From Dictyostelium discoideum (lineage: Eukaryota), in NCBI GenBank assembly GCA_000004695.1, contig CM000155.2:1120001-1184000 (forward strand): a DNA stretch of 64,000 nt, read 5' to 3'. The first letter of the stretch is position 1. Every line of letters begins with the position of its first letter. Both the position numbers and the translations under genes were made by a program. Under the pieces are notes generated by a model. It had not been told where the DNA came from. It did not search any database and saw nothing but the letters and a program-made list of their open reading frames with translations. Below, one piece after another: positions 39,633-57,843 of this stretch.

Positions 39633-40758
39633 ATGAAATTAATTATCTCATTATTAATTCTCATTTGTACATTAAAATTATCATTTGGATGTGAAGGTGA
39701 CTTCAATCCAACCACTGCCAATATTGGTCAATGTTCAGCAAGTCAAACCGTTGGTTGGGTACCAGCTGCACCAGAGTATGGAACTGAGACATTAAAAGTT
39801 TGGACTCCAGAAGAATTAAGCCCAGAAGAAAGAGATATGCATGAACATCGTATGGCCTACATTTTAGCAATCTCAAAACAAACCAGAAGAAAATTTGTCA
39901 CCTCCATCTATGCTCAAAATGGTACTCTTTTATGCCATGGTGTTAATACTGGTAAACCAAATTTAATGACTCATGGTGAAGTTGCTGCAATTAACAATTG
40001 TACATCATTATATAACATAAGTTCATACACTAATATGACTCTCTACACAACTGGTGAACCCTGCGCGATGTGCTTAAGTATTAGGACCAACAATTAATTA
40101 TCATTATTATTTTTTTATTTATATATTTATTAATTTTTTAATTATTTAAATTTTTTTTTTTTTTTTTTTTTTTTTTTTTTTTTTTTTTTTTTTTCTTTCT
40201 TCCCTACAGGCTAGTGCATTATTATGGTTAGACTTCAAAGTTGTTGTTTGGGGTACTTGGAATTCTGATCTTATGTGTAAAGTTTGTATGGGTCAAATTC
40301 CAATGGATTCAAACTATATTTTCTCACGTTACTATGGTGTTAGAGCAACTCCACCAACTTTAATTGGTGGTATTCTTCGTAATGAAACTGATGCTTGGTT
40401 CACACCATATTGTAATAACCCAGCTTCACCATACTATGTTAAACCAAAATGTGCATGTTACAACTCAACTTCACCATTGGTAATTAATCAAGTCTCTTCC
40501 TCTACTTGGTATGAAGGCCCAAACAACACCAAATACAGTCAATTCGATGGTAAAATCTTAAACAATGCTAATTACGCTGTTAACAATCCAACTTTCACAT
40601 CCTCACCATCAGGTGTTAAACCACGTACTATTTGGGGTTTAAAGAATGAAGGTGGTGATATTTGGTCATTATCATATTACCCAGTCATTAGCGGAAATGG
40701 TGGAGCTTTCCCATTTGGTTATATTAGCACTCAAGAAATTACCTTTAAAGCTAATTAA
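39633..40758 (+). CDS. Secreted CDA/TadA-fold zinc deaminase with a novel Cys-containing C-terminal domain, paralog 1. Exon 1 is 39633..40073 and exon 2 is 40210..40758. The intron donor reads TTAAGT instead of GTAAGT. As it stands the sequence encodes only a 154-aa deaminase-domain protein, ending with the stop at 40095-40097.
   Basis: Signal peptide MKLIISLLILICTLKLSFG. Helix-1 HEHRMAYILAISK. Zinc ligands HGEVAAINNC ...(28 aa)... YTTGEPCAMC, i.e. the [HC]-[AGV]-E ... PCxxC CMP/dCMP/tRNA-adenosine deaminase signature. Several N-glycosylation sequons are present. Exon 2 begins ASALLWLDFKVVVWG, the continuation of the PCxMCxxAllw helix. It is in frame only if the 136-nt TT...AG interval is removed. 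Confidence 0.6.
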
Positions 40759-40867
40759 TTATTTATTACCAATTAAAAAGTCTTACCGACTTTATATAAT
40801 CATAAAAAAAAAAAAAAAAAAAATTAATCCGAATAAATTAATAAAAAGTAATACCTTTTTGTTCACA

Positions 40868-41160
40868 ATTATATTTTATTATTATTATTATTATTATTAT
40901 TATTATTATTATTATTATTATTATTATTATTATTATCAATATTATTATTATTATTATTATTATTATTATTATTATTATTATTATTATTATTATTATTATT
41001 ATTATTATTATTATTATTATTATTATTATTATTATTATTATTATTATTATTATTATTATTATTATTATTATTATTATTATTATTATTATTATTATTATTA
41101 TTATAATTATTATTATTATTATTATTATTATTATTATTATTATTATTTTTATTATTATTA
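40868..41160. repeat. (ATT)n microsatellite, about 95 units with rare interruptions.
   Basis: Visible. The 208-aa poly-Tyr 'ORF' 40646..41272 is an artefact of reading this repeat in frame. Confidence 0.9.
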
Positions 41161-41453
41161 TAATATCTTAACTTCACTATTTGGAGGTGAAATTTTACCA
41201 ATTGTTGGGGTAACATCTGGCTTAGTAAATGGAGCAATCGAAGGCTTTACAAAGGGGGTTTTTAATTGGTAATTTAATTTAATCTACAAATAACTAACCA
41301 ATTCTCATCAATATTTTGGACTGAAAAAAAAAAAAAAAAAGAAAATCTATTGAAATAGTAAAAATAATTGGAGAATTGGAATATTAAAAAAAGTAATATA
41401 AAAAGTATTTAATTAAATATAATAATAAAAAAAAAATCCGCATTTTTTATATT

Positions 41454-41990
41454 TTATTTAATATAAAGAGATATAATTAACATAAGTTTATGCAGTTGGT
41501 TGGAAAGCAATTTGGTCTTCACCATCGATGATGTAACCGAATGAGAAGGTTTGACCTGTTGGATGACTGGATACCATTGGAGAGCCCAAGTATTTTTGGT
41601 TTCATCAACAGCAAGACCCCAGATTGAGTTTGGACGGAGTGGAGATGAGGTGAAGGTTGGGTTGGTGACGGTTACTGAACCAGTGTTGGTGATGATACCA
41701 CCGAATTGAGAGACAGTTTTACCGTTTTCGAACCATGAGGAGTAAAGAGTTTGATCGATCTTTAATGGTGAAGTAGTGTTGGTACAGACACATTGTGGTT
41801 TAATGTAATAGATTGAAGTTGGTTTGCTACAGTATGAACCGAAACAGGCGTCAGCTTCAGTACGTAAGACACCACCGATAACTCTTGGTGGGCTAGCTCT
41901 TAAACCATAGTAACGACCCAAGATGTATGAGGAATCCATTGGGATGTTTGACATTCAGATTTTGCAAAGTAAATCACTGTTGAAGGTACC
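41454..41990 (-). pseudogene. Truncated, frameshifted 3' copy of the deaminase gene, C-terminal domain only.
   Basis: Identical to 56701-57240 apart from a 1-bp deletion (cctgttgg here versus cctggttgg there) that shifts the frame (...WYPVIQQVKPSHS). The homology breaks at 41990. The shared 3' flank is AAAATCCGCATT...ATAAGTTTATGCAGTTGG. Confidence 0.8.
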
Positions 41991-55162: not shown

Positions 55163-55688
55163 AATGTCAACTAATAATAATAATAACAACAATAATAATA
55201 ATGAAGATATTGATAATGATGAATTGCAACAACAGGATAATGAGGAACAACAACAACAACAACCACAGGTATCAACATTCAATGAACAGCAACGTCAAAT
55301 AAGGGACAGCAGCAGGTACTAGATAAACATTACCACAAGTAAATACATTGTCATATCTTGTTGAACCACACCACATTGTCTATTTTCAGTGGTCTTTCCA
55401 CAACGACAGATGGACTTGTTTTTAACTTACATGATCCACATGGACCAGTAGACAACGATCGTGTAACAACTGGTGGTCGGTGTCATCAGTGTTAGTTTTT
55501 CCTAATGATTTCTTTATTGTGTTGGTTATTGCTGCTGAAGTTATTGGTGTTGTAATGTTGGGTGATGGTGGTGGTGTCGAATGGTTATTTAATTGTTGTT
55601 GGGATTGTTGATTTATTAGTTGAATGTGTTGTTGAAGAAGTTGACTTTGTTTGCAAAATTCATGAATGTTGTCCAAGCACACCAACAC
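55163..55688. pseudogene. Second copy of the poly-Q gene, broken by an internal inversion.
   Basis: The 5' half is on the + strand (MSTNNNNNNNNEDIDNDELQQQDNEEQQQQQPQVSTFNEQQRQIRDSSRY*). The 3' half (LLQQHIQLINQQSQQQLNNHSTPPPSPNITTP...TDDTDHQLLH) is encoded on the minus strand (55422..55688) and fused to DRCLLVHVDHVS, which is homologous to 46390-46430. Confidence 0.7.
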
Positions 55689-55894
55689 ATGATGAAGCAG
55701 GTAACCAAGATTGTATAATTTATACTAGATTTTCTTCACTCGATCTAAATTCACAAGAATATGCAAATAAATTACAAATTGAGCCATTACAGTCTATATC
55801 AATAGTATCACCAAAAACTATTAAAAAAATTGAACCAATCCTTATAAAGATTGTAAGTAGTAGTAGTAATAGTAGTAGTAGTAGTAGTATTTAA

Positions 55895-56012
55895 TAAATA
55901 ATTAAAAATGAATTAATTCATTAATTATAATTAATTATAATTAATTCATTAATTATAATTAATTATAATTAATTCATTAATTATAATTAATTATAATTAA
56001 TTATTTATATAT
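55895..56012. repeat. Tandem repeat of ~29 bp (ttaattataattaattataattaattcat), about 3.5 copies.
   Basis: A direct periodicity is visible. Confidence 0.8.
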
Positions 56013-56700
56013 ATAATATATAAAGAAAACAAACAATTAAATATTTAATTGATTCAATTCAATTATTTTAATTCAAATGGAACTATCAAATGAAATATAG
56101 AGAAAAGAAAGCATTAAATAAAATTTTTTAAGAAATCATCTTATCAAATACCATCACTAAGATTAAGTGAAACTGTTGGAATAGGTACATCAGGTAATAG
56201 TTCAAGTAATAGTATCAACAATAACAACAGTAGTAATGGCCAAAATTATGCATCCATTAAGTCCAATTCGTTGTGGTGGTATTAATAATCAAAAACAACC
56301 AAAATTAGAAGTTTTATCACCTGCTTTATTATTTAGAGAATTTTAGAAATTTAGATTCAATTTTAATATACCTCTCAAATTAAAATCATTTTAATCAATA
56401 TGATCCATCCATGTTTTATACAACTAATAATATTAATAATGAATCTACTAAAAGACACAATCAACAAAATTAAAATCATTGACTGTTTTTAGTAGATAAA
56501 ATCATTTTTAAAAGATTGTTGGTGAAAAAAAAAAAAAACATTTTAGCTTTTTCTTGTGATTAATTAATTTATTTTGTTATTTTGTATTATGTTTTGTATA
56601 TACAAAAAGAAATTCCAAAAATAAAAAAGTTATTAAAAAAAAAAATCCGCATTGTTGCTTATATTTTATTTAATATAAAGAGATATAATTAATTATAAGT

Positions 56701-57843
56701 TTATGCAGTTGGTTGGAAAGCAATTTGGTCTTCACCGTCGATGATGTAACCGAATGAGAAAGTTTGACCTGGTTGGATGACTGGATACCATTGGAGAGCC
56801 CAAGTATTTTTGGTTTCATCAACAGCAAGACCCCAGATTGAGTTTGGACGGAGTGGAGATGAGGTGAAGGTTGGGTTGGTGACGGTTACTGAACCAGTGT
56901 TGGTGATGATACCACCGAATTGGGAGACAGTTTTACCGTTTTCAAACCATGAGGAGTAACGAGTTTGATCGATCTTTAATGGTGAAGTAGTGTTGGTACA
57001 GACACATTGTGGTTTGATGTAATAGATTGAAGTTGGTTTGCTACAGTATGAACCGAACCAGGCGTCAGCTTCAGTACGTAAGACACCACCGATAACTCTT
57101 GGTGGGCTAGCTCTTAAACCATAGTAACGGCCAAAGATGTATGAGGAATCCATTGGGATGTTTGACATACAGATTTTGCAAAGTAAATCACTGTTGAAGG
57201 TACCCCAGACAATGGTTTTGAAGTCAGCCCACAAAAGAGCAGCTGAGCACATGGCGCATGGCTCTATAGGAGTTTGTTAGTTGTTCAATTGATTGATCAC
57301 ATGATCATTCATTATTATTTTTTAAAAAAATAAAAATAAAAAAAAAAAAAAAAAAAAAAAAAAAAAAAAAAAAAAAAAAAAAAAAAAAAAAAATTAGTAT
57401 TTGTAGATTAAAACATTATTATTACATATTAATTACTTACCTCCAGAAGTGTAAAGAGTGTAGTTGGTGAAAGAGGTGATACCGTGTAAAGCAGTACAGT
57501 TGTTGATGGCAACGATTTCACCATGTGAAATGATATTTGGTTTACCAGTGTTGACACCAAGACACATTAAAGTACCATTTTGGTGGTAGATTGAAGCAAC
57601 GAATTTCTTATTTTGTTGTTTGGCGATGGCAAGGACGTAAGCCATACGTTCTTCGTGCATACCTAATTCTTGTGGATCGAGATCAGCTGGAGTGAGAACT
57701 TGAGCATTGTCGGTTGGTTTCCAGCTTACTTTTTGAGTGGCTGTACATTCACCGATGGTTGAAATGTTTGGATTGAATTCATCGCATGCAAATGATAATG
57801 CAATAAATGCGAGTAAAATAGTTAATAATAAAGCAATCTTCAT
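56701..57843 (-). CDS. Secreted CDA/TadA-fold zinc deaminase with a Cys-containing C-terminal domain, paralog 2 (intact). It has 2 exons: 57843..57441 and 57263..56701 (321 aa).
   Basis: Signal peptide MKIALLLTILLAFIALSFA. HEERMAYVLAIAK. HGEIVAINNC...YTLYTSGG|EPCAMCSAALLWADFKTIVWG spans the intron, with a GTAAGT donor in phase 1 and a cctatag acceptor. The C-terminal domain is NSDLLCKICMSNIPMDSSYIFGRYYGLRASPP...CSKPTSIYYIKPQCVCTNTTSP...WYPVIQPGQTFSFGYIIDGEDQIAFQPTA. Confidence 0.8.

Follow-up and report, generated by a model that had tools for sequence, protein, structure and literature searches.

What do the two inverted deaminase-like genes on chromosome 6 of Dictyostelium discoideum encode, are both of them still functional, and where did the gene fragments lying between them come from? 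We analyzed a stretch of 64,000 nucleotides from assembly GCA_000004695.1 (contig CM000155.2, positions 1,120,001 to 1,184,000; hereafter the window, with positions counted from its first letter). A sequence-only reading of this DNA had placed two full paralogs in inverted orientation, and both were found at the same coordinates: DDB_G0292080 (p1) and DDB_G0292096 (p2), a convergent pair with 59% protein identity (Table 1). The best explanation, which we consider probable although well short of settled, is that they are a pair of dictyostelid-specific genes for extracellular zinc-dependent hydrolytic deaminases with a C-terminal carbohydrate-binding module (CBM49), of which p2 is the working copy and p1 is probably crippled.

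The p2 gene is the working copy on chromosome 6. Its spliced product is an intact 321-aa protein identical to the public sequence P0235/Q54DP5, in which a signal peptide is followed by a deaminase domain with HGE (residues 107-109) and PCAMC (residues 136-140) motifs and then by CBM49. The mature polypeptide has 302 residues (33.3 kDa), five N-x-S/T sequons, and 11 Cys. Both p1 and p2 have a hydrophobic signal-type N terminus of the form MK(L/I)...SF(A/G) followed by C, and in both the HGE and PCAMC motifs have the spacing typical of the cytidine deaminase (CDA) fold. The signal peptide and deaminase zinc site claimed from the letters alone are therefore present in both proteins, and the N-glycosylation sequons in p2. 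The p2 product is a secreted, glycosylated protein with a conserved zinc-deaminase catalytic set and a bona fide CBM49, and it is under strong purifying selection.

Pfam models for both domains score above their curated cut-offs in both proteins. The deaminase model PF00383 matches p2 residues 67-155 with 47.9 bits and p1 with 42.3 bits (cut-off 25), and CBM49 (PF09478) matches p2 residues 231-309 with 73.7 bits (E 1.5e-20, model positions 2-79 of 80) and p1 with 36.8 bits. Residues 50-207 of p2 align end to end with the guanine/ammeline deaminase NE0047 of Nitrosomonas. The C-terminal domain of about 180 residues, which had been taken for a novel domain of unknown fold, is thus the last third of the deaminase fold, a linker of about 20 residues with three invariant Cys (YC...P.C.C), and CBM49, which contains conserved Trp residues in the family alignment.

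Structural comparison relied on family alignments and on the D. citrinum homolog from the locus corresponding to chromosome 2 (90% identical), for which an AlphaFold model with a predicted local distance difference test score (pLDDT) of 86.9 is available. The model predicts a three-layer alpha/beta/alpha deaminase fold and a CBM2-like beta-sandwich for CBM49. Fold-comparison scores were 17.8 for TadA, 16.3 for guanosine deaminase, 16.1 for NE0047, 16.0 for Msmeg3575 (ammeline-binding), and 15.2 for yeast cytosine deaminase, with 8.1 for APOBEC3H and 6.8 for AID; the C-terminal domain scored 9.7 and 8.3 with CBM2 modules. Matches of the family profile include TadA and the cytosine, guanine, and guanosine deaminases, with E values from 1e-11 to 1e-6. 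Profile and structural neighbors agree with PF00383, and the assignment to signal-peptide-bearing zinc deaminases of the CDA/TadA fold holds. By these comparisons the enzyme belongs to the clade of TadA, guanine, and cytosine deaminases and is an ortholog of no characterized member.

Its neighbors in sequence and fold (TadA, ADAT2, Fcy1, and GuaD-type enzymes) could also suggest a conventional housekeeping enzyme, either a tRNA A34 deaminase or a cytosine or guanine salvage enzyme, that has been misread as secreted. We regard this as very improbable. The TadA equivalog model (NCBIfam NF008113) reaches 28.1 bits against a cut-off of 150, and a conserved signal peptide, five sequons, nine Cys that are not zinc ligands, a CBM49, and restriction of the family to dictyostelids all argue against it, as does recovery of the protein at its glycosylated size on secreted bodies (PMC4920372). 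The enzymes NE0047 (2g84, guanine/ammeline), Msmeg3575 (5xkq), Bacillus subtilis GuaD (1wkq/1tiy), and yeast Fcy1 are cytosolic, Cys-poor, single-domain proteins, unlike p2. Relative to NE0047-type enzymes, p2 adds a disulfide-rich CKxCMxxIPxDS loop, an N-terminal Cys pair, and CBM49. Unlike TadA and ADAT2, it is secreted and glycosylated, and Cys-rich loops and a carbohydrate module stand where those enzymes have their C-terminal RNA-binding helix.

The p2 protein has been encountered before. Denoncourt et al. (2016; PMC4920372) named the DDB_G0292096 product CDD and listed its signal peptide, deaminase region, and carbohydrate-binding domain. CDD is among the four major proteins that were present in all preparations of secreted multilamellar bodies purified from cells grown on bacteria; its apparent mass is 46 kDa compared to 35 kDa predicted, and it is precipitated by the H36 antibody, which is specific for GlcNAc-1-phosphate (PMC4920372). 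Secretion of p2, proposed from its signal peptide, is thus an experimental observation. The published work on CDD names neither a substrate nor a role. In a 2026 life-cycle proteome (PMC12821622), DDB_G0292096 was absent from vegetative, aggregation, and mound samples and was detected in both replicates at culmination (5.3e6 and 6.9e6) and in fruiting bodies (8.7e7 and 1.2e7). This late peak is like that of many other Dictyostelium CBM49 proteins in the same data set. No entry for DDB_G0292080, DDB_G0292096, or the paralog DDB_G0277355 was found in the cell-type RNA-seq supplements. The genes and their domain architecture are already annotated in UniProt (Q54DP5, Q54DQ7, and Q54ZU8) and dictyBase, and the family cannot be called undescribed.

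The sequence-only reading gave both full genes the same build, which is correct for the exons and fails for the splicing of p1. Exon 1 of p1 is collinear with p1 orthologs at three related-genome loci (L001, L005, and L006; loci of other genomes carry L numbers), and the two-exon layout is that of p2. At the position homologous to the splice donor (40074), p1 reads TGC/TTAAGT (the slash marks the exon border), with T rather than G at +1; the same site reads TGT/GTAAGT or TGT/GTATGT in D. discoideum ACTFIR and D. cf. discoideum ACTFIZ. When every pair was enumerated, none of the GT/GC..AG combinations in p1 retained both PCAMC and the ASALLWLDFK helix. The closest donor that could serve instead, GTATTA at 40078, leads to Cys-Leu-Ser-stop when joined to the strong poly-T/CAG acceptor. 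Public gene models use other GT..AG pairs: the AX4 model (P0231, 320 aa) loses the helix, and the ACTFIT model (P0230, 326 aa) loses the second zinc Cys. The canonical junction is skipped as well in the 323-aa model from ACTFIW, a third D. discoideum assembly. Sequencing error was ruled out because the gene models of all three assemblies avoid this junction, and the ACTFIW model in particular indicates that the T is real.

The altered donor probably means that p1 is crippled or only recently disabled. AX4-specific changes in the p1 exons comprise one nonsynonymous and four synonymous substitutions, and the pairwise ratio of nonsynonymous to synonymous substitution rates (dN/dS) against orthologs is 0.10-0.18. 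Since the exons still look constrained, the lesion is either recent or somehow tolerated. A T at donor +1 (TGC/TTAAGT or TGT/TTATGT) was seen in three family genes of two species: p1, a minus-strand gene at L005 13061-14128, and a gene near L003 10410 (approximate position). All three also offer an in-frame GT..AG pair, with its GT 4 nt upstream and its AG 5 nt downstream, and splicing there would remove the second zinc-binding Cys. This common change may reflect gene conversion between paralogs, recurrent loss, or a deliberately dead isoform.

Intron position also varies in the family. Among closely related genes, the single intron is found at three sites spread over about 20 nt at the PCxMC codons (before Glu in phase 1, within Met in phase 2, and after Cys in phase 0), and it is absent from the D. 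citrinum gene at the chromosome-2-type locus. The comparison covered window positions 40053-40215 and 57247-57445, L002 10001-10969, and, with approximate starts, L001 ~10421-10545, L005 ~10421-10510, and L006 ~10421-10570. Such a pattern is suggestive of sliding or loss of the intron, or of an exchange with a processed copy. Intron shifts and a donor change common to paralogs in a few close genomes are of minor interest for gene-structure evolution.

Conservation of the catalytic residues bears on whether the protein is an enzyme at all. In 17 dictyostelid sequences, the zinc-site residues H, E, and PC..C, residue N98, and nine other Cys are invariant, and signal sequences are kept in the 16 members with a complete N terminus (the truncated P0008 was left out). 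N98 is the equivalent of the substrate-anchoring Asn66 of NE0047; both this position and that of NE0047 Glu143 come from alignments that included the wild-type chain as well as the N66Q and E143D mutants. Between p2 and the D. citrinum gene, dN/dS is 0.10 overall, 0.066 in the deaminase part, and 0.13 in CBM49. A matrix or lectin-like structural protein, which would use the deaminase fold as a binding module without catalysis on the multilamellar-body surface or in the cellulose wall of stalk and spore, is quite unlikely when the catalytic set, including the anchoring Asn, is invariant throughout the CBM49 clade and purifying selection is strongest on the deaminase part. Several observations would suit such a protein: many Dictyostelium CBM49 proteins are matrix proteins (PMC12821622), dictyostelids have catalytically dead paralogs, and the only in-frame rescue of the donor change in several genes removes a zinc ligand. 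As in plant class C GH9 endoglucanases and in Dictyostelium celB, st15, staB, and ecmC/D, the module is C-terminal on a secreted protein, but in p2 it is joined to a deaminase rather than to a glycoside hydrolase or a matrix repeat.

All full-length relatives are dictyostelid, from the genera Dictyostelium, Polysphondylium, Cavenderia, Heterostelium, and Tieghemostelium, and the family is conserved across all four dictyostelid groups. A profile search of 1.84 billion representative proteins returned 18 at E <= 1e-30, every one of those looked up being dictyostelid, and in this set the fusion of deaminase and CBM49 was confined to dictyostelids. A second dictyostelid clade comprises secreted deaminases of 210-280 aa that lack CBM49, many with a hydrophobic tail resembling a glycosylphosphatidylinositol (GPI) signal; some are catalytically dead (P0041, P0043, and P0045 read HSE...PDSLS). 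To this clade belong three tandem 224-aa secreted deaminases of T. lacteum with at least 90% mutual identity (L007 10001-13729, contig LODT01000037). The fourth T. lacteum copy is on a different contig, and just upstream of the tandem array there is a 226-aa gene without annotation.

The nearest relatives outside dictyostelids are bacterial proteins of about 190 aa with twin-arginine translocation (Tat)-type signal peptides and the common motif HGE...PCxMC...QIxIxS. They carry PF14437 together with PF00383, several are auto-annotated as TadA, and they appear to form an uncharacterized family of exported CDA-fold deaminases. These genes lie at L008 8001-8591 and at L009-L011 8001-8573, with an adjoining alpha/beta-hydrolase gene in two unrelated metagenomic loci. 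The neighborhoods of these two loci gave no clue to a substrate: the alpha/beta hydrolase is the only adjoining gene, and no purine, pterin, or transporter genes were found.

A third D. discoideum paralog, DDB_G0277355 (Q54ZU8), is on chromosome 2. Its AX4 model (299 aa) lacks the segment EPCAMC...TFNS, which the 322-aa ACTFIT model retains, and the AX4 model may therefore use a wrong GT..AG pair. Searches of literature text and supplements found no mention of this gene. In both D. citrinum and D. cf. discoideum, a gene of the urea-transporter family (PF03253) and PIG-H flank the chromosome-2-type paralog (L002 6217-7260; L003 6075-7247).

Secreted deaminases are also known from conflict systems, and the sequence-only reading had proposed a nucleic-acid-targeting effector that enters bacteria, phage-infected prey, or foreign amoebae and mutates their DNA or RNA. 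Secretion of p2 (PMC4920372), a PF14437 (MafB19-deam) score of 35.1 bits against a cut-off of 27, and reports of secreted AID/APOBEC-like deaminases (AADs) in other dictyostelids (PMC5889660) are in line with this, as is the turnover of copies that had been suggested and was found, copy number and arrangement differing between strains. We nevertheless judge an effector unlikely. PF14437 does not discriminate, as it also matches ordinary TadA-like proteins and accompanies PF00383 in all the bacterial relatives. The deaminase is N-terminal with a carbohydrate module behind it and no trafficking domain, and the neighboring genes vary from locus to locus, with no conserved small immunity-like neighbor found at L002, L003, L005, or L006. 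The APOBEC, NAD1, and SNAD4 Pfam models all stayed below threshold for p1 and p2, which places neither protein among AID/APOBEC-like deaminases, and a dN/dS of about 0.1 (0.10-0.18) is unlike an arms race; the analogy to polymorphic toxins and antiviral editing enzymes therefore fails. SNADs and dictyosteliid AADs (Krishnan et al., 2018; PMC5889660) do resemble the p2 family in their signal peptides, disulfide-stabilized C-terminal extensions, and lineage-specific tandem copies. Identity of the family with these published AADs was considered and rejected: the T. lacteum copies are on LODT01000037 beside a topoisomerase gene, not on LODT01000051 beside MACPF and peroxidase genes.

An extracellular hydrolytic deaminase remains the preferred explanation, and the fold suggests how it would work. 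After cleavage of a Sec signal peptide, the protein would consist of a disulfide-rich N-glycosylated CDA-fold domain, the short Cys-rich linker, and CBM49. His107, Cys137, and Cys140 would hold a zinc ion that activates water, Glu109 would act as the proton shuttle, and an exocyclic amino group on a heterocycle would be replaced by oxygen with release of ammonia. The enzyme would move through the secretory and lysosome-related pathway; it exits on multilamellar bodies (PMC4920372), and deamination would take place in lysosome-derived compartments or in the extracellular space. CBM49 may tether it to the cellulose matrix of culminants and fruiting bodies, the stages at which it accumulates. GPI-like tails in other paralogs and Tat signals in the bacterial relatives also support an extracellular location.

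In our view the enzyme most likely acts on a free small molecule, such as a base or nucleoside of the purine, pyrimidine, pterin, or triazine-like type, rather than on a nucleic acid. We favor this because a base deaminase gives the best full-length sequence match, the RNA-binding helix at the TadA C terminus has been replaced, the relatives in bacteria are periplasmic, and the protein evolves slowly. Several points weigh against this picture. The residue aligned with NE0047 Glu143 is Asn or Gln, and the invariant loop CK(I/V)CM(S/G)(N/Q)IPxDS has no counterpart in characterized enzymes. The top structural neighbors of the predicted model are tRNA deaminases, and a nucleic-acid substrate is possible on that account. 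Cellulose binding by the p2 CBM49 is a prediction, and since multilamellar bodies of vegetative cells have no known cellulose, the module may bind something else there. For p1, the constraint on its exons may make the label "dead" premature.

One candidate activity deserves separate mention. DDB_G0292096 and its chromosome 2 twin DDB_G0277355 might encode the extracellular folate/pterin deaminase that shapes self-generated folate gradients; we offer this as a tentative lead with a small chance of being correct. T. lacteum uses pterin as its aggregation attractant, and the dictyostelid-specific family has soluble, GPI-tailed, and amplified forms in species using pterins. If the lead is true, the shorter secreted or GPI-tailed paralogs, including the T. 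lacteum copies, may be soluble and cell-surface forms of the enzyme. Folate or pterin deamination strips the 2-amino group from a 2-amino-4-oxo ring, as guanine deaminases do. The D. discoideum activity is extracellular, has a reported size of about 40 kDa, and is produced when amoebae feed on bacteria (Bernstein et al., 1981, as cited in PMC4794234 and PMC8616412), and it underlies self-generated folate gradients (PMC4794234). The p2 product is likewise extracellular and of compatible size, its 33.3-kDa polypeptide with five sequons migrating at 46 kDa. Knowledge of the activity goes back to about 1980. In 2021 it was still "yet to be cloned" (PMC8616412), and our literature search found no later report of its cloning. 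Timing speaks against the lead: the folate deaminase would be expected as a glycoprotein from growing and early starving cells, whereas the whole-cell proteome has p2 only at culmination and in fruiting bodies. The cellulose module on p2 also speaks against it, as does the placement of the characterized bacterial pterin deaminases described in PMC13197243 in the amidohydrolase superfamily.

The DNA between p1 and p2 (15.7 kb) has the structure A-X-A'-Y-X'-A'', in which A is the last ~575 bp of p2 (41427-42000 and 47906-48475 in the two relics, and the 3' end of the intact gene) and X is the duplicated block. Two 3' fragments between the full genes had been recognized before, and they are indeed there, but they are copies of p2 alone. 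Both are direct repeats of p2 about 97% identical to its exon 2 and begin within that exon past the zinc motif, so that exon 1 and the intron are missing. Relic 2 accordingly lacks a signal peptide and zinc site, and its ATG arose at the breakpoint. The two full genes lie next to each other, tail to tail with 0.7-2 kb between them, in D. discoideum ACTFIR and D. cf. discoideum ACTFIY, where the pair is bordered by a COMM-domain gene and by a comC-like gene. In the window the DNA flanking p1 and p2 is collinear with both compact genomes, and relic 1 occupies exactly the place of the p2 3' end in them (L006 11740-12354, 97% identity). The 15.7-kb block is lineage-specific. X-related sequence also lies downstream of the chromosome-2-type paralog in D. 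cf. discoideum, which suggests that ectopic exchange between the two paralogous loci may have been followed by tandem duplication. Both fragments are probably dead by-products of this lineage-specific tandem segmental duplication, which separated p1 from p2.

Apart from one weak Myb match, a Pfam scan of the open reading frames (ORFs) in the duplicated block gave nothing. DDB_G0292094, which has a degraded copy at 43210-44312 and a relative downstream of the chromosome-2-type paralog of D. cf. discoideum (L003 12776-13503), encodes 345 aa without a Pfam match; in the 2026 proteome it was present in both mound replicates and, at lower levels, in both fruiting-body replicates and one culmination replicate (PMC12821622). 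DDB_G0292080, DDB_G0292090, DDB_G0292094, and DDB_G0292096 are all on AX4 chromosome 6 (3.60-Mb record) and together on one 2.22-Mb contig of strain ACTFIT.

Table 1. Coordinates of p1, p2, and the elements between them (window positions).
Feature	Coordinates	Strand	Details
p1, DDB_G0292080 (UniProt Q54DQ7)	39633-40758	+	whole gene
p1 exon 1	39633-40073	+	signal peptide 39633-39689; HGE 39972-39980; PCAMC 40059-40073
p1 intron	40074-40209	+	begins TTAAGT; ends in poly-T tract and CAG
p1 exon 2	40210-40758	+	rest of deaminase fold, Cys-rich linker, CBM49 (36.8 bits), stop codon included
Relic 1	41427-42000	-	truncated p2 exon 2 with a nonsense mutation (TGT>TGA) and a frameshift from loss of 1 nt
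Older degraded copy of duplicated block (X)	43210-46731		homologous to 50672-54605 and 55648-55889, 91-98% identity
Relic 2, DDB_G0292090	47906-48477	-	truncated copy of p2 exon 2; open 168-aa ORF (exact-sequence look-up), CBM49 only
Younger copy of duplicated block (X')	50672-55889		DDB_G0292094; 248-aa ORF 52608-53354 (+); weak Myb-like ORF 53788-54303 (+)
DDB_G0292094	50735-51772	-	345-aa ORF (exact-sequence look-up)
p2, DDB_G0292096 (UniProt Q54DP5)	57843-56701	-	whole gene
p2 exon 1	57441-57843	-	signal peptide 57843-57787, N-terminal Cys pair, helix 1, HGE 57525-57517
p2 intron	57264-57440	-	GTAAGT...TATAG, phase 1, before Glu135
p2 exon 2	56701-57263	-	PCAMC 57261-57247, rest of deaminase fold, Cys-rich linker, CBM49 56976-56740, stop codon

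Other features were noted in the window. The G+C content of the region is about 22%, which is typical of Dictyostelium. Immediately downstream of p1 and beside relic 1 there is a long perfect trinucleotide tract (TAT/ATT-type; 40869-41237) that translates as poly-Tyr from one strand and as poly-Asn from the other. Beyond p2, positions 59764-63836 are collinear (~92%) with the comC-like gene of about 1040 aa (LRR_ComC, ComC_SSD) that flanks p2 at L005 and L006. Three tRNA-Ser(UGA) genes fall within 8 kb (4940-5021 on the plus strand, 9630-9711 and 13095-13176 on the minus strand), with repeats near them (4913-5070 resembles 9738-9582, and 10529-10749 equals 12259-12479). A tandem duplication of about 1.8 kb (14516-16292 and 16954-18840, 76-89% identity) occupies a very AT-rich stretch (G+C 17-18%).

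As a genome feature this locus is ordinary: its genes are annotated, UniProt and dictyBase already list their domain architecture, and mass spectrometry has detected the protein on two occasions. The point of interest is the substrate of a zinc deaminase that a bacterivorous amoeba exports with a carbohydrate module and that is present in all four dictyostelid groups. Should the folate/pterin lead prove true, a widely used model of self-generated chemotactic gradients would gain the missing gene for its degrading enzyme and become genetically tractable.

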